From Escherichia phage KK4: DNA of 64,000 bases. Below, one piece after another: positions 1,706 to 12,206 of this stretch. Made by a program: the position numbers and the translations under genes. Under the pieces are notes generated by a model, which saw only the letters and a program-made list of their open reading frames with translations, ran no database searches and was not told the origin of the DNA. Position 1 is the first letter of the stretch. Every line of letters starts with the position of its first letter. The stretch lies in sequence record OR327750.1; one strand, written 5' to 3'.

Positions 1706-1713
1706 TATAAATA
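1706..1713 (+). promoter_or_regulatory. T4-type late promoter TATAAATA upstream of gene 34
   Basis: exact TATAAATA 35 nt upstream of gene 34 ATG. Confidence 0.6.
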
Positions 1714-1747: not shown

Positions 1748-4700
1748 ATGGCCGAGATTAAAAGAAAGTTCAGAGCAGAAGATGGTCTGGACGCAGGTGG
1801 CGATAAAATAATCAACGTAGCTTTAGCTGATCGTACCGTAGGAACTGACGGTGTTAACGTTGATTACTTAATTCAAGAAAACACAGTTCAGCAATATGAT
1901 CCAACTCGTGGATATTTAAAAGATTTTGTAATCATTTATAATAATCGTTTTTGGGCAGCAACGGATAATATTCCAAAACCTGCTGGAAATTTTAATAGAA
2001 TTCGTTGGAAAGCATTACGTACTGATGCTGTATATACAACCGTATCATCTGGACCATATCAATTAAAATCCGGAGAAGCAATTTCAGTAGATACATCAGT
2101 TGGCAATGACATTGAATTTACTTTACCACCTTCTCCGCTTGATGGAGAAACCGTAATAATTCAAGATATCGGTGGAAAACCTGGCATAAATCAGGTTAAA
2201 ATAAATTCTTCAAATCAGAGTATTGTCAATTTTAGAGGTGAACAGGTACGTTCAGTTTTAATGACTCATCCAAAGTCACAGATGGTATTCATTTTTAATA
2301 ACCGTTTGTGGCAAATGTATATTGCTGATTATAGCAGAGAAGCTGCAATTGTTACTCCATCGACTGCATATCAAGCACAATCTAATGATTTTATCGTACG
2401 TAGATTTACTTCTGCCGCACCGATTAATGTTAAACTTCCAAGATTTGCCAATCATGGAGATATCATTAATTTCGTTGATTTAGATAAATTAAATCCACTT
2501 TATCATACAATTGTTACGACATATGATGAAACGACGTCAGTGCAAGAAGTTGGAACTCATTCCATTGAAGGCCGTACATCGATTGACGGTTTCTTGATGT
2601 TTGACGATAATGAGAAATTGTGGAGATTGTTTGACGGGGATAGTAAAGCACGTTTACGCATTATAACAACTAATTCTAATATTCGTCCAAATGAAGAAGT
2701 CATGGTATTTGGCGCGAATAATGGAACAACCCAAACAATTGAACTTCAGCTTCCGACTGATATTTCTGTTGGTGATACTGTCAAAATTTCCATGAATTAC
2801 ATGAGAAAAGGACAAACAGTTAAAATCAAAGCTGCAGGTGAAGATAAAATTGCTTCTTCAGTTCAATTGCTGCAATTCCCAAAACGCTCAGAATATCCGC
2901 CTGAAGCTGAATGGGTAACAGTTCAAGAATTAGTTTTTAACGGTGAAACTAATTATGTTCCAGTTTTACAACTTGCTTATATAGAAGATTCTGATGGAAA
3001 ATACTGGGTTGTACAGCAAAACGTTCCAACTGTAGAAAGAGTAGACTCTTTAAATGCTTCTACTAGAGCAAGATTAGGCGTAATTGCTTTAGCTACACAA
3101 GCTCAAGCAAATGCTGATTTAGAAAATTCTCCACAAAAAGAATTGGCAATTACTCCAGAAACGTTAGCTAATCGTACTGCTACAGAAACTCGCAGAGGTA
3201 TTGCAAGAATAGCAACTACTGCTCAAGTGAATCAGAACACCACATTCTCTTTTGCAGATGACCTTATCATCACTCCTAAAAAGCTGAATGAAAGAACTGC
3301 TACAGAAACTCGTAGAGGTGTCGCTGAAATTGCTACGCAGCAGGAAACTAATACAGGTACTGATGATACTACAATCATTACTCCTAAAAAGCTTCAAGCT
3401 CGCCAAGGTTCTGAATCATTATCTGGTATTGTAACTTTTGTATCTACTGCAGGAGCTACTCCAGCTTCTAGCCGTGAATTAAATGGTACGAATGTTTATA
3501 ATAAAAACACTAATAATTTAGTTGTTTCACCTAAAGCTTTGGATCAGTATAAAGCTACTCCAACGCAACAAGGCGCAGTAATTTTAGCAGTTGAAAGTGA
3601 AGTAATTGCTGGACAAAGCCAAGAAGGATGGGCAAATGCGGTTGTAACGCCAGAAACGTTACATAAAAAGACATCAACTGATGCAAGAATTGGTTTAATT
3701 GAAATTGCTACACAAAGTGAAGTTAATACAGGAACTGATTATACTCGTGCAGTCACTCCTAAAACTTTAAATGACCGTAGAGCAACTGAAAGTTTAAGTG
3801 GTATAGCTGAAATTGCTACACAGGTTGAATTCGACGCAGGCGTCGACGATACTCGTATCTCTACACCATTAAAAATTAAAACCAGATTTAATAGTACTGA
3901 TCGTACTTCTGTTGTTGCTCTATCTGGATTAGTTGAATCAGGAACTCTCTGGGACCATTATACCCTTAATATTCTTGAAGCAAACGAGACACAACGTGGT
4001 ACACTTCGTGTAGCTACACAGGTCGAAGCTGCCGCAGGAACATTAGATAATGTTTTAATAACTCCTAAAAAGCTTTTAGGTACTAAATCTACTGAAGCAC
4101 AGGAAGGTGTTATTAAAGTTGCAACTCAGTCTGAAACTGTGACTGGAACATCAGCAAATACTGCTGTATCTCCAAAAAATTTAAAGTGGATTGTGCAGAG
4201 TGAACCAACTTGGGCAGCAACTACTCTGATAAGAGGGTTTGTTAAAACTTCATCTGGTTCAATTACATTCGTTGGTAATGATACGGTAGGTTCAACACAA
4301 CCATTAGAATCATATGAGAAAAATGGTTATGCAGTATCACCATATGAATTAAATCGCGTATTAGCAAATTATTTGCCATTAAAAGCAAAAGCTGTAGATA
4401 GTAATTTATTAGATGGTCTAGATTCGCTCCAGTTCATTCGTAGGGACATTGCACAAACAGTTAATGGTTCACTAACCTTAACCCAACAAACGAATCTGAG
4501 TGCCCCTCTTGTATCATCTAGTACTGCTACATTCGGTGGATCAGTTTCAGCAAATAGTACATTAACTATTTCTAATACTGGAACGGCAACTCGTCTGATT
4601 TTTGAGAAAGGACCTCAAACTGGAACAAACCCGGCTCAAACGATGACTGTCAGAGTGTGGGGAAATCAATTTAGTGGGGAATCAGACACAACACGTTCTA

Positions 4701-5617
4701 CCGTATTTGAAGTTAGTGATGAAACGTCTAGTCATTTTTATTCTCAGCGTAATAAAGCTGGAAATATAACATTTAATATCAACGGTACAGTAACACCGAT
4801 AAATGTTAATGCTTCAGGAACATTGAATGCAAATGGTGTAGCAACATTTGGTAATTCAGTCACTGCAACTGGTGAAATTATTTCTCGAAGCGCAAATGCT
4901 TTCCGTGCTATTAACGGAAATTATGGTTTCATTGTTCGCAATGATGGATCAGTAACGAATTTTATGCTTACTGCATCGGGTGATCAAACCGGCGGATTTA
5001 ATGGATTGCGTCCTTTAGCTATTAATAATGCATCTGGCCAAGTAACGATTGGTGAAAGCTTAATCATTGCAAAAGGTGCTACTATAAGTTCAGGCGGTTT
5101 AACTGTTAACTCGAGAATTCGTTCTCAAGGTGTTAAAACATCTGATTTATATACTCGTGCGCCAACATCTGATACAGTAGGATTCTGGTCAATTGATATT
5201 AACGATTCAGCCACTTATAATCAATTCCCTGGTTATTTTAAAATGGTTGAAAAAACTAATGAAGTGACTGGACTTCCATATTTAGAACGCGGTGAAGAAG
5301 TTAAATCTCCTGGTACATTGACTCAGTTTGGTAACACACTTGATTCGCTTTATCAAGATTGGATTACTTATCCAACGACCCCAGAAGCACGTACCACTCG
5401 CTGGACGCGTACATGGCAGAAAACTAAAAATTCTTGGTCAAGTTTTGTTCAGGTATTCGATGGAGGTAACCCTCCTCAACCTTCTGATATAGGAGCAATC
5501 CCATCTGATAATGGAATAATAGGTAATCTTACTATTCGTGATTTCTTACGAATTGGTAATGTTCGCATTATTCCTGACCCAGTGAATAAAACTGTTAAAT
5601 TTGAATGGGTTGAATAA
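1748..5617 (+). CDS. 34: long tail fiber proximal subunit gp34
   Basis: 1289 aa, same length as T4 gp34; repeated TPETLANRTATETRRG-type fiber motifs; first gene of late LTF operon. Confidence 0.92.
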   Translation: MAEIKRKFRAEDGLDAGGDKIINVALADRTVGTDGVNVDYLIQENTVQQYDPTRGYLKDFVIIYNNRFWAATDNIPKPAGNFNRIRWKALRTDAVYTTVSSGPYQLKSGEAISVDTSVGNDIEFTLPPSPLDGETVIIQDIGGKPGINQVKINSSNQSIVNFRGEQVRSVLMTHPKSQMVFIFNNRLWQMYIADYSREAAIVTPSTAYQAQSNDFIVRRFTSAAPINVKLPRFANHGDIINFVDLDKLNPLYHTIVTTYDETTSVQEVGTHSIEGRTSIDGFLMFDDNEKLWRLFDGDSKARLRIITTNSNIRPNEEVMVFGANNGTTQTIELQLPTDISVGDTVKISMNYMRKGQTVKIKAAGEDKIASSVQLLQFPKRSEYPPEAEWVTVQELVFNGETNYVPVLQLAYIEDSDGKYWVVQQNVPTVERVDSLNASTRARLGVIALATQAQANADLENSPQKELAITPETLANRTATETRRGIARIATTAQVNQNTTFSFADDLIITPKKLNERTATETRRGVAEIATQQETNTGTDDTTIITPKKLQARQGSESLSGIVTFVSTAGATPASSRELNGTNVYNKNTNNLVVSPKALDQYKATPTQQGAVILAVESEVIAGQSQEGWANAVVTPETLHKKTSTDARIGLIEIATQSEVNTGTDYTRAVTPKTLNDRRATESLSGIAEIATQVEFDAGVDDTRISTPLKIKTRFNSTDRTSVVALSGLVESGTLWDHYTLNILEANETQRGTLRVATQVEAAAGTLDNVLITPKKLLGTKSTEAQEGVIKVATQSETVTGTSANTAVSPKNLKWIVQSEPTWAATTLIRGFVKTSSGSITFVGNDTVGSTQPLESYEKNGYAVSPYELNRVLANYLPLKAKAVDSNLLDGLDSLQFIRRDIAQTVNGSLTLTQQTNLSAPLVSSSTATFGGSVSANSTLTISNTGTATRLIFEKGPQTGTNPAQTMTVRVWGNQFSGESDTTRSTVFEVSDETSSHFYSQRNKAGNITFNINGTVTPINVNASGTLNANGVATFGNSVTATGEIISRSANAFRAINGNYGFIVRNDGSVTNFMLTASGDQTGGFNGLRPLAINNASGQVTIGESLIIAKGATISSGGLTVNSRIRSQGVKTSDLYTRAPTSDTVGFWSIDINDSATYNQFPGYFKMVEKTNEVTGLPYLERGEEVKSPGTLTQFGNTLDSLYQDWITYPTTPEARTTRWTRTWQKTKNSWSSFVQVFDGGNPPQPSDIGAIPSDNGIIGNLTIRDFLRIGNVRIIPDPVNKTVKFEWVE

Positions 5618-5625
5618 GAGGTATT

Positions 5626-6741
5626 ATGGAAAAATTTATGGCAGAGTTTGGACAAGGATATGTCCAAACGCCATTTTTATCGGAAAGCAATTCAGTAAGA
5701 TATAAAATAAGCATAGCGGGTTCTTGCCCGCTTTCTACTGCGGGGCCATATGTTAAATTTCAGGATAATCCCGTTGGAAATCAAACATTTAGTGCAGGTC
5801 TTCATTTAAGAGTTTTTGACCCTTCTACGGGAGCATTAGTTGATAGTAAGTCATATGCTTTTTCTGCTTCAAACAATACAACATCTGCCGCTTTTGTCAG
5901 TTTCATGAATTCTTTGTCAAACAATAAACTTGTTGCTATATTAACTAGCGGAAAGGTTAATTTTCCTCCTGAAGTGGTATCTTGGTTAAGGGGAGCAGGA
6001 ACTTCAGTTTTTCCATCAGATTCAGTATTGTCAAGATTTGACGTGTCATATGCTGCTTTTTACACTTCTTCTAAAAGAGCTATCGCATTAGAGCATGTTA
6101 AACTAAGTAATAGAAAAAGCACAGATGACTATCAAACTATGTTAGATGTTGTATTTGATAGTTTAGAAGACGTTGGAGCGACAGGATTTCCAAAAAGAAC
6201 TTATGAAAGCGTTGAACAATTTATGTCTGCGGTTGGAGGAACTAATAATGAAATTGCGCGATTGCCAACTTCAGCTGCTATAAGTAAACTTTCTGACTAC
6301 AATTTAATTCCTGGTGATGTTCTTTATCTTAAAGCACAGTTATATGCTGATGCTGATTTACTTGATCTTGGAACTTCAAATATATCTATTCGTTTTTATG
6401 ATGCATCAAATGGATATATTTCCTCGACCCAAGCTGAGTTTACTGGGCAAGCTGGGTCTTGGGAATTAAAAGAAGATTATGTAGTTGTTCCTGAAAATGC
6501 AGTAGGATTTACGATATATGCACAGAGAACTGCACAAGCTGGTCAAGGCGGAATGAGGAATTTAAGCTTTTCTGAAGTATCAAGAAATGGCGGCATTTCA
6601 AAACCTGCCGAATTTGGCGTCAACGGTATTCGCGTTAATTATGTCTGTGAATCGGCTTCACCTCCAGATATAATGGTACTTCCTACACAGGCATCGTCTA
6701 AAACTGGTAAAGTGTTTGGACAGGAATTTAGAGAAGTTTAA
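5626..6741 (+). CDS. 35: long tail fiber hinge connector gp35
   Basis: 371 aa, MEKFMAEFGQGYVQTPF...; synteny 34-35-36-37. Confidence 0.9.
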   Translation: MEKFMAEFGQGYVQTPFLSESNSVRYKISIAGSCPLSTAGPYVKFQDNPVGNQTFSAGLHLRVFDPSTGALVDSKSYAFSASNNTTSAAFVSFMNSLSNNKLVAILTSGKVNFPPEVVSWLRGAGTSVFPSDSVLSRFDVSYAAFYTSSKRAIALEHVKLSNRKSTDDYQTMLDVVFDSLEDVGATGFPKRTYESVEQFMSAVGGTNNEIARLPTSAAISKLSDYNLIPGDVLYLKAQLYADADLLDLGTSNISIRFYDASNGYISSTQAEFTGQAGSWELKEDYVVVPENAVGFTIYAQRTAQAGQGGMRNLSFSEVSRNGGISKPAEFGVNGIRVNYVCESASPPDIMVLPTQASSKTGKVFGQEFREV

Positions 6742-6745
6742 ACTG

Positions 6746-6770
6746 AGGGAGCCTTCGGGTTCCTTTTTTC
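6746..6770 (+). terminator. intrinsic terminator after gene 35 (UUCG-loop hairpin plus U6)
   Basis: GGAGCC-TTCG-GGTTCC followed by TTTTTTC. Confidence 0.6.
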
Positions 6771-6772
6771 TT

Positions 6773-6780
6773 TATAAATA
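6773..6780 (+). promoter_or_regulatory. T4-type late promoter TATAAATA for genes 36-37
   Basis: exact TATAAATA 24 nt upstream of gene 36 ATG. Confidence 0.6.
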
Positions 6781-6803
6781 ATATTAAAATAAAGGGGCAT
6801 ACA

Positions 6804-7454
6804 ATGGCTGATTTAAAAGTAGGTTCAACTGTAGGTGGATCTGTCATTTGGCATCAAGGAAATTTTCCGTTGAATTCAGCCGGTGACGATGTACTCTACA
6901 AATCATTTAAAATATATTCAGAATATAATAAACCACAGGCAGCTGATAATGATTTCGTTTCTAAATCTACTGGTGGTACTTACACAGGCCCAGTTACTAT
7001 TAATTATGGTGTAAATAGTTATCTTCAATTAAGTAATAATGAAACCCCCATCCGAATTCGTTCTGGTGGCGGCACTGGTAATACTCTTGTAGTTGGTGGC
7101 TCTTCTGGCGGTATTAGTTTTAGACCAGCAGGTAGTGAAATCACTACTGGACAAATTACTATTACGCCAGAAGGTTTGACAACATTTACCAAAGCTGTAA
7201 CGGCTCCATCTGTAACTGTTACATCTACTCCTTCCGCAGCATCAGATGCTACTCGTAAAGATTATGTTGATGGAGCAATAAATACTGTTACTGCAAATGC
7301 AAACTCTAGGGTATTACGCTCTGGAGACACTATGACAGGAAATTTAACTGCGCCAAACCTTTTTTCGCAGAATCCTGCATCTCAACCTTCACACGTTCCA
7401 CGATTTGACCAAATCGTAATTAAGGATTCTGTTCAAGATTTCGGCTATTATTAA
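6804..7454 (+). CDS. 36: long tail fiber distal connector gp36
   Basis: 216 aa; [23 protein letters not shown]...; synteny. Confidence 0.88.
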
Positions 7455-7462
7455 GAGGACTT

Positions 7463-10429
7463 ATGGCTACTTTAAAACAAATACAATTTAAAAGAAGCAA
7501 AACTGCAGGTCAACTTCCTGCTGCTTCAGTATTAGCCGAAGGTGAATTGGCTATTAATTTAAAAGATAAAACAATTTTCACAAAAGATGACTCAGGCAAT
7601 GTTATAGAATTAGGTTTAAAATATGGAGGAACAATTGATGGTTCTTTAACTGTTAATGGAAATATAATTGGAAATTTAACAGGTAACGCTGCAACTGCAA
7701 CGAAATTAAAAACAGCACGAAAAATTAATGGTATATCCTTTGATGGGTCAAAGGATATCACGCTAACTCCATCTGACATAAATGTCAATAGCACAACATT
7801 TATAAAAAATAATGGCGAATTACCTGTTGATGCTAATTTAGATGAGTATGGGCCTGTTGAAGAATATCTTGGAGTTTGGTCGAAAGCAACTTCAACCAAC
7901 GCTCAACCAGCAAATAAATTTCCAGAACAAAATGCTGTAGGTGTGCTAGAAGTATTTGTGGCCGGTCAATTTGCTGGTACTCAGAGATATACAACTAGAT
8001 ACGGAAATGTTTATATTCGTTCCTTGACTGCTACATGGAACGGAGTAAACGGTCCGTGGAGTGCGTGGCGAAATATTCAATCTGGTACTCGTTCACTGTC
8101 AACAACAATTGATCTTAATGATCTAGGAGGCGCTGAACACCTTGGTTTGTGGCGAAATAGTTCAAATTCCATTGCTACCTTTGACAGAAATTTCCCAGAA
8201 GAGGGGTCGTCAGCTCAAGGTCTTTTGGAAGTATATGAAGGTGGAAACTATTCTCGCACACAGAGATATACAACCAGATTTGGTGTTGTTTATACTCGTT
8301 GTCTTACTGCTGCGTGGGATGCTTCTGCGCCTAAATGGGGACCGTGGCAACAAGTCGGTAATGTCACACCAGCGACTTTCTATGACGGAGATCTGAATGA
8401 TTTTAAAACTCCTGGGTTATATAATATTTTAGGCACTGATGCCGTTATTAACTGTCCTACAGGTGAAGGTTTGCCGACTGTTATTGTTGGTTTGCTGGAA
8501 GTTAAACAGCGTGCTTCTGGCGGTGCTATTTTCCAAAAATTTACTACTGCCGGAACAGGTGCAACTACACGCGATCGTATTTTTGAGCGTGCATATACTG
8601 GTGGTGTGTGGGGTACATGGAACGAAGTATATACATCTTACTCTCTTCCAATTACTTTGGGTATGGGTGGTATTAAATCTAACTTAGCAGAGTTAGACTG
8701 GCAAGCATTTGATTTTGTTCCTGGTAGTATGTTTAGCGTTCCTTTGAACAAAATAAAGAACATGCCATCAAATATGGATTGGGGTACGATTGACGGAAAC
8801 CTGGTTATGTTTTCTGTTGGTCCTAGCGAGCACACCAGCACAGGACGTACTGTTCAGGTTTGGCGTGGAACTGTATCCCAGACAAACTATCGTTATTTTG
8901 TCGTTCGTGTATTCGGTAATCCAGGGAGTAGAACATGTACAGTTCGACGCGTTGTTCTTGAAGACGGATCACATACTTGGACTGCTAAACAAGATTTTAA
9001 TGGCGCAGTTAACTTTAACTCTACTGTTAACCTTAATAACACTACCACATTTAAAACAGAAGTTAAATTCCGCTCGTTGAATGCATTCCGTATGTATGGC
9101 GGAAAATTTGGTACATTTTTACGTAATGATGGAGAGAGTCTTTATATTCTTTCCACCGACGAAGATGATCAAAATGGAAACTTTAATACAAATAGACCTT
9201 TCCGTTATGAATTAAGAACTGGTGATGTTACTTTGGGTGGTGTTAGTGGTGCTAACGTTTTAAAATTAAAACGTGATTCTCTCACCGCATTTTTTGGCGG
9301 TGATATTAACATTAAAGGCACGATGACTTTTGACGCCGGACGTTTAGGATCACGAGATTATTTTAAATTTAACCATTGGGGTGATAGCAATAACGCTCGT
9401 GATAACATCATCCAGTTAGAAGATAGTCAAGGCGCCCATTTTTCCACTGAACGTACTTTAGCGACAGGTGCAATTAAGACTAAATTTTTTGGTGAAATTG
9501 AATCCGATGGTAAATTGGTTATTAAACGTCCGGGTGATTCTATTGTATTATCAACAACTGCTAGTAATTCTTTGCATATTCGCGGTGATATAGACGGGAC
9601 TGGTAACTGGTATATTGGTAAAGGTGGTGCTGATAATGGATTAGCGTTCTATAGTTATGCTACTAATGCTGGTGTATACATTACAAACGCAGGAGATATC
9701 TCGCTAAGTCCAAAGGGTGCCGAAATGGCTCAGGTCAATAACGTTCGATTATATGTTCATGGTGAACGTTGGACCGCTAGTCAACCAGGTGATTGGGGCA
9801 GTCAGTGGCAAGTGGAAGCGCCAATATTCGTCGATCATGGTTATGTTTCACAGGATTGTTATTATCCAATTATTAAAGGAAGAAGTGTAATCACCAATCA
9901 AGGGTTTGTAACTGCCGTCGATCTTGGTATTCGTCGTGTCCCTAACAATTGGGGGCAAGCAATTATTCGTGTTGGATCTGCAGAGGCATCGCCAGCGGCT
10001 GGACACCCTAACGCGGTATTTGAATTTCATTACGACGGTACTTTCTATTCTCCTGGTAATGGTAACTTTAACGATGTGTATATTCGTTCCGATGGTCGTC
10101 TTAAGATTAATAAAAAAGAGCTAGAAAACGGAGCACTTGAAAAAGTATGCCGACTGAAAGTTTATACATACGATAAGGTTAAGTCTATTAAAGATCGTAG
10201 TGTTATTAAACGTGAAGTTGGTATTATTGCTCAGGATCTTGAAAAAGAATTACCGGAAGCTGTGTCTAAAGTTGAAGTTGATGGATCTGATGTTCTGACA
10301 ATTTCTAACTCCGCTGTGAATGCTCTTTTAATTAAGGCTATCCAAGAAATGAGCGAAGAAATTAAAGAATTAAAAACGCCTTTCTTCACTAAAATTGCTC
10401 GCAAAATTAGTAAATATTTTAAATTCTAA
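7463..10429 (+). CDS. 37: long tail fiber distal subunit gp37 with C-terminal intramolecular chaperone (S74-like) domain
   Basis: 988 aa; N-term [22 protein letters not shown]...; C-terminal [16 protein letters not shown] autoproteolysis motif. Confidence 0.88.
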
Positions 10430-10436
10430 CAACAAG

Positions 10437-10452
10437 GGGCAACGCCCCCTTT
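10437..10452 (+). other. GC hairpin between genes 37 and 38
   Basis: GGGGC-AAC-GCCCC immediately after gp37 stop; no strong U tract. Confidence 0.35.
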
Positions 10453-10463
10453 GGAGATAAATT

Positions 10464-11246
10464 ATGGCAGTAGTTGGTGTTCCTGGTTGGATTGGTAGTT
10501 CATCCGTAAATGAAACAGGACAACGATGGATGAGTCAAGCGGCTGGTCAATTAAGATTGGGTGTTCCTTGCTGGATGAGTCAATTTGCAGGTCGCTCACG
10601 AGAAATTATTCATACACTTGGAGCAGACCATAACTTCAATGGTCAATGGTTCCGAGATAGATGTTTTGAGGCCGGTAGTGCACCTATAGTGTTTAATATT
10701 ACAGGTGATTTAGTATCATATTCTAAAGATGTTCCTTTATTCTTCATGTACGGGGATACACCAAATGAATATGTTCAGTTAAATATACATGGCGTAACGA
10801 TGTATGGACGTGGCGGTAATGGTGGTAGCAATAGTCCTGGCTCAGCTGGAGGTCATTGTATTCAAAACGATATTGGTGGGAGACTAAGAATTAATAATGG
10901 TGGAGCTATTGCTGGCGGCGGTGGCGGCGGTGGCGGCGGATATTATTCTCCTTTTTCACAAATGAGATTAACCTTTGGCGGTGGTGGTGGGCGTCCGTTT
11001 GGTGCACCTGGCGGATCTATTGATATGCAATCAGGCGCAACTGCTGGTACTATTTCTGCACCTGGCTCAGGATCCGTGAATGGTATCTATAATGGTGGAA
11101 ACGGTGGTGAAGTAGGTTCCGCGGGAGGTAGATGCAATATTCGCGGTCAAGGATCTGAATATAATGGCGGCGCTGCTGGTTATGCTGTCATAGGGTCTGC
11201 TCCAACGTGGCAAAATGTTGGAGCAATATATGGTCCAAGAGTATAA
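10464..11246 (+). CDS. 38: receptor-recognising tail fiber adhesin gp38 (T2/T6 type, glycine-rich motifs)
   Basis: 260 aa; [13 protein letters not shown]... N-terminus; runs GGGGGGGGG and GGGGG; not the 183-aa T4 chaperone type. Confidence 0.88.
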
Positions 11247-11276
11247 TGTGAATAAATACCCTTAAAAGGAGGGTCT

Positions 11277-11933
11277 ATGGCAGCACCTAGAATATCATTT
11301 TCGCCCTCTGATATTCTGTTTGGTGTTCTAGATCGCTTGTTCAAAGATAACGCTACCGGGAAGGTTCTTGCTTCCCGAGTAGCTGTCGTAATTCTTTTAT
11401 TTATGATGGCGATTGTTTGGTATAGGGGAGATAGTTTCTTTGAGTACTATAAGCAATCAAAGTATGAAACATACAGTGAAATTATTGAAAAGGAAAGAAA
11501 TGCACGCTTTGAATCTGTCGCCCTGGAACAACTCCAGATAGTTCATATATCATCTGAGGCAGACTTTAGTGCGGTGTATTCTTTCCGCCCTAAAAACTTA
11601 AACTATTTTGTTGATATTATAGCATATGAAGGAAAATTACCTTCAACAATAAGTGAAAAATCACTTGGAGGATATCCTGTTGATAAAACTATGGATGAAT
11701 ATACAGTTCATTTAAATGGACGTCATTATTATTCCGACTCAAAATTTGCTTTTTTACCAACTAAAAAGCCTACTCCCGAAATAAACTACATGTACAGTTG
11801 TCCATATTTTAATTTGGATAATATCTATGCTGGAACGATAACCATGTACTGGTATAGAAATGATCATATAAGTAATGACCGCCTTGAATCAATATGTGCT
11901 CAGGCGGCCAGAATATTAGGAAGGGCTAAATAA
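11277..11933 (+). CDS. t: holin T
   Basis: 218 aa MAAPRISFSPSDILFGVLDRLF... recognised as T4 holin; one N-terminal TM segment. Confidence 0.92.
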   Translation: MAAPRISFSPSDILFGVLDRLFKDNATGKVLASRVAVVILLFMMAIVWYRGDSFFEYYKQSKYETYSEIIEKERNARFESVALEQLQIVHISSEADFSAVYSFRPKNLNYFVDIIAYEGKLPSTISEKSLGGYPVDKTMDEYTVHLNGRHYYSDSKFAFLPTKKPTPEINYMYSCPYFNLDNIYAGTITMYWYRNDHISNDRLESICAQAARILGRAK

Positions 11934-12206
11934 TTATTTGTTCGTATACATTTCTAGATATCGATATACACCCTCAAAACCCTCGTTGAATTCATCGATG
12001 AGGGTTTTCTTATCTTCTTGGGTTAATTCAGAAACAATTTTACGGAATAAATTCTGATTTAATTTTCTACCTTCATGCGTTACTCCAATCTCATTCAGAA
12101 ATGCAATAAAATTAGCACGATTTTCAACAATATCTTCTCTGGAAAATTTAATCAAAATAGATGCAACAGTAATAATTTCACGAACTGTATCAATGTTTTT
12201 ATTCAT
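11934..12206 (-). CDS. asiA: anti-sigma70 factor AsiA
   Basis: 90 aa MNKNIDTVREIITVASILIKF...; stop codon abuts holin stop (TAATTA). Confidence 0.92.
   Translation of the reverse strand: MNKNIDTVREIITVASILIKFSREDIVENRANFIAFLNEIGVTHEGRKLNQNLFRKIVSELTQEDKKTLIDEFNEGFEGVYRYLEMYTNK

Follow-up and report, generated by a model that had tools for sequence, protein, structure and literature searches.

How is the distal tip of a T-even long tail fibre assembled from the products of two adjacent genes, and does a repetitive run of glycine codons in the second of them make that tip prone to change? Genes 37 and 38 of Escherichia phage KK4 (OR327750.1) raise both questions. We analysed them at positions 7463-11246 of a 64,000-nucleotide stretch of this genome, referred to below as the window, following a preliminary description that had read the pair as a host-range module made of gp37 with an auto-cleaving C-terminus and a glycine-rich gp38 adhesin. 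The region very probably encodes the distal tip of a T6-type long tail fibre, made of a self-cleaving gp37 and a gp38 cap. Both open reading frames are present at the lengths first given for them, 988 and 260 residues, and match coding sequences annotated in Escherichia phage GADU22 (OQ944321.1, genus Tequatrovirus), the closest database match, which comes from the urine of a patient with a urinary tract infection and is 100% identical over 7463-11246. The region matches 656 phage records, T6 among them at 88.9% nucleotide identity. The module is ordinary, its architecture and mechanism being already known from T2, T6, S16, PP01 and the fPS phages; our analysis demonstrates its domain content, homology, fold and conservation, and the natural insertion and deletion (indel) variants of its relatives. 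Coordinates are collected in Table 1.

The C-terminal chaperone domain of gp37

The window gp37 is 90% identical overall to T6 gp37 and six residues shorter. Pfam places Peptidase_S74 ("chaperone of endosialidase", PF13884) at residues 876-934 with 45.3 bits, against a cut-off of 22 bits, over profile positions 1-57 of 58, and the chaperone domain runs from residue 876 to the final residue, 988, which is the extreme C-terminus. The preliminary description had given this domain about 105 residues; its presence stands, by Pfam, by the match to 6F45 and by related loci, and its length comes to 113. The SDGRLK signature that it had put near 10088-10105 lies exactly there, at residues 876-881. The last 140 residues match the S16 gp37 chain 6F45_A (E 1.9e-5), with SDGRLK aligned to SDRRIK, and they also match the phage tail fibre 8jov (SDERLK) and, weakly, the auto-cleaving domain of MYRF. 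Ser876 is followed five residues on by Lys881, in an S-D-x-R-x-K pattern. A serine and a lysine with catalytic roles are established features of family S74, and the pattern marks Ser876 and Lys881 as the putative catalytic pair. By Pfam the S74 domain is present in T6 gp37 and absent from T4 gp37, which agrees with the initial claim about T4. Further upstream, Pfam also finds a gp34-like trimerisation module at residues 519-581.

We extracted gp37 C-termini from 13 related IMG/VR loci. The motif (D/N)VY(I/V)RSDxRxK is kept in 12 of them, next to upstream sequence that is unrelated between lineages (a mosaic pattern), and the thirteenth locus (L011) is disrupted at the cleavage-site motif. In S16, the last 113 residues of gp37 are auto-cleaved at DLNVS^SDRRIKK, and in the fPS phages cleavage has been predicted at DVYIR^SDGRLKI, exposing a docking surface for gp38 (Salem et al., PMC7917993). 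The gp37 of T2 and T6 is cleaved, after which gp38 caps the fibre (PMC3157838); a 1986 paper by Drexler on the proteolytic processing of T2 gp37 is listed among the references of a citing article. For this fibre type, the literature effectively answers the two outcomes that had been named as contrary to the preliminary description, namely an uncleaved gp37 and a gp38 acting only as a chaperone (PMC3157838).

Separately, the gp37 shaft shows an internal triplication, read directly from the translation, in which three diverged copies of a motif of about 45 residues, G(V/L)LEV...TQRYTTR(Y/F)G.VY.R.L.A.W...W, lie at approximately residues 160-200, 253-295 and 343-390.

The gp38 adhesin

Pfam assigns gp38 to both GP38 (PF05268, 243.5 bits) and Gp38_N (PF21721, 70.3 bits), each with a cut-off of 25 bits. 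Over about its full length the protein matches the receptor-binding domain of PP01 gp38, 9V85 (E 5e-79), and S16 gp38, 6F45_D (E 3e-50). An AlphaFold2 model built from an alignment of 50 homologues has a mean predicted local distance difference test (pLDDT) score of 87.7; searched against a PDB library, its sole hits at E <= 0.001 are 9V85 (two chains) and 6F45_D, on which it superposes with template modelling (TM) scores of 0.88 (root-mean-square deviation 2.4 Å) and 0.77, respectively. As modelled, gp38 has the fold of a beta-helix with a polyglycine-II sandwich. Glycine makes up 24% of the protein, and the columns that are invariant in the 50 homologues are mostly glycines of the glycine-rich motifs, the intervening segments having no consensus. 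The window gp38 is identical to that of GADU22 and 94% identical to that of T6. By its Pfam content, its matches to solved structures, its fold and its identity to T6, gp38 is a T2/T6/S16-type adhesin, as had been proposed; the alignment to T6 and S16 fibres suggested at the outset thus gives 90% and 94% identity to T6 gp37 and gp38, and matches of the gp37 C-terminus and of gp38 to S16 6F45.

In the N-terminal attachment domain, Trp9 and Trp22 are invariant in the 50 homologues, and Trp37 is the majority residue, at less than 90% conservation. The role of the three tryptophan prongs of this domain is known from the S16 structure (PMC6851490). By analogy with the near-identical adhesins of RB5, FL23 and fPS-65, gp38 would be located at the fibre tip of the virion and would bind an outer-membrane receptor. 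An alternative takes gp38 to be only an assembly chaperone, as in T4, absent from the virion and leaving receptor binding to gp37. It can point to the position of the window gp38, which is that of gene 38 in the T4 genome, and to records that still call T6 gp38 a "distal long tail fiber assembly catalyst". We nevertheless regard it as extremely improbable: T4 gp38 matched no Pfam family, whereas the window gp38 matches both gp38-adhesin families as well as the virion-tip adhesins 6F45 and 9V85 in sequence and fold; in the S16 paper, T4 gp38 is called very different, both in sequence and in function (PMC6851490); and the receptor-binding needle domains of T4 (Collar and Phage_fiber) are found in T4 gp37 only.

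The attachment domain also contains a 22-nucleotide imperfect direct repeat (10527-10548 and 10572-10593, 45 nucleotides apart), which encodes both of its WMSQ motifs. One variant from the Logan assemblies (P0160) lacks exactly the 15 residues between these motifs, consistent with a repeat-mediated deletion.

The likely receptor

From residue 51 onward, the window gp38 differs at two residues from that of FL23, which experimentally needs Tsx (PMC12032242), and over the whole protein it differs at five residues from that of RB5, which uses Tsx (PMC3157838). Judged from these close sequence relationships, the receptor of the window phage on E. coli K-12 is most likely Tsx. A point on the other side is that gp38 of fPS-65, which differs from the window gp38 only at residues 14 and 15, serves a phage that depends on lipopolysaccharide (LPS) inner-core heptose on Yersinia pseudotuberculosis (PMC7917993), so that Tsx may not be the sole receptor.

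The Gly9 tract as scaffold beside loop B

The preliminary description had singled out runs of GGGGGGGGG and GGGGG in gp38, which are found at residues 151-159 and 172-176. It had described the longer one as an uninterrupted (GGC/GGT)9 tract at about 10912-10940; the nine glycine codons are there, but the tract starts at 10914 and its ninth codon is GGA, the order being GGC GGC GGT twice and then GGC GGC GGA (eight GGY codons and one GGA). Tandem Repeats Finder reports 10913-10939 as a perfect tandem repeat of 9 bp × 3.0 (100% match). The window has 34.8% G+C; across its 64 kb and on either strand, the Gly9 and Gly5 tracts are the only runs of at least four GGN codons, and 27-nucleotide windows with at least 22 G+C occur only at 10909-10916. 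A 14-nucleotide stretch at the Gly5 tract is 86% identical to the Gly9 repeat unit. At the protein level, G152-G156 of the Gly9 run and G173-G176 of the Gly5 run are invariant in the 50 homologues.

The run had been placed within the receptor-binding loops, which the structural comparison does not bear out. It aligns with the poly-Gly run of S16 gp38, 151-GGGGGGGG-158, which is helix 3, the central polyglycine-II helix of the three-layer sandwich, and in S16 it is the hypervariable segments that form the distal loops, the proposed site of receptor binding (PMC6851490). PP01 has the same division into glycine-rich motifs, as polyglycine-II helices, and hypervariable segments, as distal loops, and its loop-B (Q161-V170) lies within the segment directly after the glycine run (PMC12892980). 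In the window gp38, residues 160-171 form a beta-hairpin in the model, where pLDDT is lower than anywhere else in the binding domain, and the Gly5 run comes next; these residues vary among homologues and align with the PP01 segment that holds loop-B. Because of the alignment to S16 helix 3, the position of loop-B in PP01 and the model of residues 160-171, we conclude that the Gly9 tract is scaffold flanking loop B, outside the loop itself; the loop is the hypervariable segment that follows.

Tract-length variation in relatives

Glycine-rich motifs were put forward as recombination hotspots by Tetart et al. 1998, according to two later papers that cite that work (PMC12032242, PMC3157838), and the preliminary description had called the Gly9 tract a potential hotspot of slippage or recombination. 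Among the matches listed, the poly-Gly run of 120 cluster representatives has nine glycines in 52, eight in 38, seven in 14, six in eight, five in two and four in one, with five outside the pattern used; the 38 eight-glycine runs go with an IAY-type loop B. Third-codon positions of the tract vary among relatives of the window gp38 while the count stays at nine.

Close relatives nevertheless hold clear length variants. In PYps14T and AV121 the 9-bp unit is present four times, for a total of 12 glycines; PYps32T has 12 codons, one of them changed to GTC, on the synonymous background of PYps47T; in PYps47T itself, glycines and loop B are tandemly duplicated over 54 nucleotides, with the Gly9 and Gly5 tracts at the borders; and in D5505 the Gly5 tract is reduced to Gly4. 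Between PYps14T (12 Gly) and PYps15T (9 Gly) there are no substitutions in gp38, and between PYps32T (12 codons) and PYps47T (9 Gly and the duplication) there is one, while 20-22 substitutions in gp38 separate the first pair from the second, which are thus different backgrounds. In these lineages, then, the tract indels, with zero or one substitution beside them, have outpaced point changes, and they probably arose more than once. A set of 71 distinct proteins with 80% or more identity to the window gp38 shows recent indels concentrated in the Gly9 and Gly5 tracts, 5% of the protein's length. Single Logan contigs add runs of seven, six or four glycines, plus the reciprocal loop-B deletion, bounded by both tracts (P0021 and P0023).

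The Gly9 run is best understood as a polyglycine helix under structural constraint; its repetitive coding sequence, together with the Gly5 tract, makes it a preferred site of rare in-frame indels. The earlier idea of a slippage or recombination hotspot thus gains natural support of a modest kind: unit variants and tract-bounded duplications and deletions exist in near-identical relatives, and the expanded allele is limited to a few records. Several observations count against giving these indels a larger part. The run has nine glycines in nearly all T6-type gp38 proteins, its length being lineage-specific and very stable, and the 12-codon allele occurs in only 3 of 127 full-coverage GenBank records (about 2%). 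Pattern scans of JGI metagenomes and IMG/VR for YYSP-type alleles of 5-15 codons returned only nine-codon alleles (4/4 and 3/3). In T6 gp38, deleting whole glycine-rich motifs 2, 3 or 4, or three hypervariable segments, gave no viable phage (PMC3157838). The contraction variants in Logan are single automated assemblies and could be errors. Inferred in this account are gp37 cleavage, gp38 docking, the identity of the receptor and whatever bearing the length of the tract has on host range.

A stronger reading, which we think doubtful, would make the GGCGGCGGT-type 9-bp × 3 repeat and the Gly5 tract a built-in generator of indels, much faster than point substitution and a rapid route to new host ranges in T6-type phages. 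Unit slippage from nine to 12 glycines would then add one helical turn, unequal exchange between the tracts would duplicate or delete loop B, and the presentation of the receptor loop, and hence host range, would be altered. Somewhat less probable still is a contingency locus, in which units would often be gained and lost and the length of helix 3 would change three glycines at a time; this would reposition loop B and tune the host range in phage populations. Such a locus would fit a perfect 9-bp × 3 repeat inside a coding region, a +1-unit allele on two different synonymous backgrounds, and siblings with zero or one gp38 substitution that differ by tract-associated indels. Three glycines also make one turn of a polyglycine-II helix. 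The siblings moreover differ in host range, with 78 of 128 strains lysed by PYps14T and 85 by PYps15T, and 87 by PYps32T and 52 by PYps47T; Hammerl et al. remarked on the indels in gp38 of the PYps phages, which they proposed to be linked to host range, without giving a mechanism (PMC8762354). However, these differences are correlations between genomes that possibly differ elsewhere, and PYps15T gp38 also has a deletion of Asn210; three units are very short for high slippage rates; and expansion in about 2% of GenBank relatives, with length stable at nine within the lineage, is not what frequent unit change would lead one to expect.

At the other extreme, the length variants might all be sequencing or assembly artefacts in a GC-rich tract of low complexity, the repeat being no more than the codon pattern of a fixed Gly9 helix. 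The prevalence of length nine everywhere would suit this, as would the variants with seven, six or four glycines and the loop-B deletions, each a single Logan contig, and the HP3 entry described below. We hold it to be improbable, since the expansions are exactly in frame and of exactly one repeat unit, and are carried by cultured, completely sequenced phages from one laboratory in Germany (PYps14T and PYps32T) and another in Denmark (AV121). For the PYps phages, the published analysis independently gives the gp38 length differences as well (PMC8762354).

Some records were set aside or are ambiguous. The Logan variants P0021, P0023, P0026, P0052, P0112, P0160 and P0162, looked at in the DNA wherever this could be done, are inseparable from assembly or minority-read artefacts. 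Logan contig SRR30543803 (L017, 29.5 kb), positions 2033-4217, is T-even, with a gp37 of only 477 residues that retains S74 and a gp38 without loop B, in which the Gly9 and Gly5 tracts are fused at a common GGCGGT; it is a genuine variant with short fibres or else the product of a collapsed assembly. The RefSeq gp38 of HP3 (YP_010278715.1, 187 residues, P0129) has eight glycines and then a frameshift inside the tract (window 10914-10940), which we take for a probable sequencing error; in GenBank, HP3 (KY608967) bears the flag UNVERIFIED and an odd Rosemountvirus taxonomy line. In the laboratory-evolved HP3.2 (OP978391.1, 401-1172, L027), gp38 has an 11-nucleotide deletion in the linker just after the N-terminal attachment domain (window approximately 10620-10635), which shifts the frame, and only a coding sequence with an internal start is annotated. 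HP3.2 was rejected as a Gly-tract variant, the deletion being in the linker; either the sequence is in error there, or evolution has left this phage with an adhesin that is split or disabled.

A proposed mechanism

Taken together with the published systems, these features suggest the following course. gp37 would be made as a precursor of 988 residues, the last 113 of which, the Peptidase_S74 intramolecular chaperone, would help three chains fold into a trimer. The chaperone would then cut itself off between Arg875 and Ser876, by means of Ser876 and Lys881, and cleavage would expose the DVYIR tip, onto which one gp38 monomer may dock through its N-terminal helical domain with the three tryptophans. 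In the C-terminal half of gp38, predicted to be the polyglycine-II sandwich, the glycine-rich motifs, Gly9 included, would form a rigid core, and the hypervariable segments between them the receptor-binding loops, with Tsx, by similarity, most likely the receptor on E. coli K-12. The Gly9 repeat of three 9-bp units would occasionally gain or lose units by slippage, and the tract would recombine with the nearby Gly5 tract, duplicating or deleting loop B.

Comparison with known fibre tips

The T6 tip, which binds Tsx and whose relatives include RB5, RB3, fPS-65, FL23 and GADU22, has in common with the window the order g36-g37-g38-t, the Gly9 and Gly5 tracts and a YYSPF-type loop B. T6 gp38 differs at 15 residues, including S165P in loop B and D187N, A194G, A199S and N234D downstream. 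The tip of Salmonella phage S16 (6F45; Dunne et al. 2018) has the S-D-x-R-x-K start and the 113 C-terminal residues of gp37 in common with the window, as well as the three-domain architecture of gp38, its polyglycine-II sandwich and the aligned poly-Gly helix 3. Differences are that the S16 sequence right upstream of the cleavage site is unrelated to the window except for the last few residues (PMC7917993), that 6F45_D is 44% identical to the window gp38 model in the Foldseek alignment, that S16 helix 3 has eight glycines against nine in the window, and that S16 binds Salmonella OmpC. PP01 gp38 (9V85; PMC12892980) is the best structural match, at 66% identity and with the same scaffold, but differs in its hypervariable loops (loop B is YSQANNWAGKYV), has eight glycines and binds OmpC of O157.

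Chaperones of the endosialidase type (K1F endoNF, T5 pb1, MYRF) have in common with the window gp37 the PF13884 domain, its extreme C-terminal position on a trimeric fibre, and a serine with a lysine five residues later. In the window the cargo is not a tailspike but the shaft of a T-even fibre, and, unlike in the endosialidase type, release here would also create the docking site for a separate adhesin, as for S16 (PMC7917993). T4 gp37 occupies the same locus, but only its N-terminal 66 residues are closely similar to the window gp37 (79% identical); both proteins have a gp34-like trimerisation module, and the C-terminal end of T4 gp37 is made up of Collar and fibre-repeat needle domains, without S74. 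T4 gp38, a chaperone, is set apart from the window gp38 by Pfam content and by its published description (PMC6851490).

Adhesins of the gp38 family about 58% identical to that of the window (258 residues, NRGRLVF-type loop B) were seen on large bacterial contigs: one of 60.7 kb from Logan (ERR689735, L019, 318-1079), others of 391 kb (P0103) and 281 kb (P0111), and one from E. fergusonii (P0106). In two contigs (L018 and L019) the adhesin gene is preceded by an open reading frame of 73 residues, not by a T-even gp37. This suggests that gp38-type adhesins also occur in prophages or in another non-T-even context. The representative of the cluster to which the window gp38 belongs (PJZ22119.1, P0001) is labelled "receptor-recognizing protein [Bacillus cereus]", which is almost certainly phage contamination of a bacterial assembly, and a protein of 303 residues with both S74 and GP38 domains (P0034) is probably a gene-call fusion across the gp37-gp38 junction.

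Gene order and flanking signals

The window has a standard T-even long-tail-fibre block on its + strand, from gp34 through holin t, and the order g37-g38-t is also that of T4 and T6. The gp38 start (10464) follows the gp37 stop (10429) after a gap of 34 nucleotides, and related loci have the same arrangement.

Table 1. Coordinates of the fibre genes and their features in the window (aa, amino acids; ORF, open reading frame; CDS, coding sequence)
Feature	Position	Strand	Basis
gp37, long tail fibre distal subunit	7463-10429	+	ORF, 988-aa precursor; same CDS annotated in GADU22
DVYIR, aa 871-875, predicted last residues of mature gp37 and gp38 docking surface	10073-10087	+	Conservation in related loci; fPS parallel (PMC7917993)
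SDGRLK, aa 876-881, predicted auto-cleavage between Arg875 and Ser876	10088-10105	+	Aligns with S16 SDRRIK and 8jov SDERLK
Intramolecular chaperone / Peptidase_S74 domain, 113 aa, predicted release after trimerisation	10088-10426	+	Pfam PF13884, E 1.1e-11
gp38 adhesin, monomeric fibre cap	10464-11246	+	ORF, 260 aa; same CDS annotated in GADU22
gp38 N-terminal attachment domain, aa 1-42, Trp9/Trp22/Trp37	10464-10589	+	Pfam Gp38_N
Gly9 tract GGGGGGGGG, gp38 aa 151-159, matching polyglycine-II helix 3	10914-10940	+	Aligns with S16 poly-Gly run
Hypervariable segment, aa 160-171, position of receptor-binding loop B	10941-10976	+	Homologue variability, model, PP01 alignment
Gly5 tract GGGGG, aa 172-176, next polyglycine helix	10977-10991	+	Duplication/deletion partner of the Gly9 tract around loop B
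gp34	1748-5617	+	ORF, 1289 aa
gp35	5626-6741	+	ORF, 371 aa
gp36, short distal fibre subunit joining gp35 to gp37	6804-7454	+	ORF, 216 aa; Pfam Phage_T4_gp36 28.2 bits; annotated in GADU22
Holin t, next gene after gp38	11277-11933	+	ORF, 218 aa; Pfam Phage_holin_T, E 1.9e-117
T4-type late promoter motif TATAAATA	6773-6780	+	Exact motif match upstream of gene 36
Second copy of TATAAATA	1706-1713		Exact motif match just upstream of gp34

The motif TATAAATA is no more frequent in the window than expected by chance, and its role as a promoter rests on the known consensus of T4 late promoters. Copies stand just upstream of gp34 and gp36, and g36, g37 and g38 therefore probably form a single late transcript that would start at the 6773 motif. 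Right after gp35, a terminator-like hairpin with a T run (6745-6766) precedes the TATAAATA copy before gp36, an arrangement that suggests a transcript boundary within the fibre gene block. Sigma-70-like promoters and terminator-like sites occur across 6700-12000 no more often than expected from shuffled sequence. A small G+C-rich hairpin, AGGGG-CAACGC-CCCCU (10435-10450), lies after the stop of gp37 and ahead of the ribosome-binding site of gp38, and the fPS-65 record has a "terminator" annotated beneath the matching region; we rejected this hairpin as a functional part, its folding being no better than that of shuffled sequence (z -0.49).

Implications

The window adds no new biology on the architecture or mechanism of the tip, and its contribution to the slippage idea, natural support found in relatives, is a modest one. 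That natural in-frame indels concentrate at two glycine-codon tracts in close relatives points to a cheap route to variants in loop length, and alleles with 12 glycines or a duplicated loop B are already present in viable phages. Assemblies and annotations of gp38 are error-prone at the glycine tract, which is a hazard for annotation. The two-residue distances of the window gp38 to FL23 (Tsx; residue 51 onward) and to fPS-65 (LPS core, Yersinia; residues 14 and 15) are of practical value, and the module, which decides which bacteria the phage attacks, is a natural handle for host-range prediction and for engineering in phage therapy.

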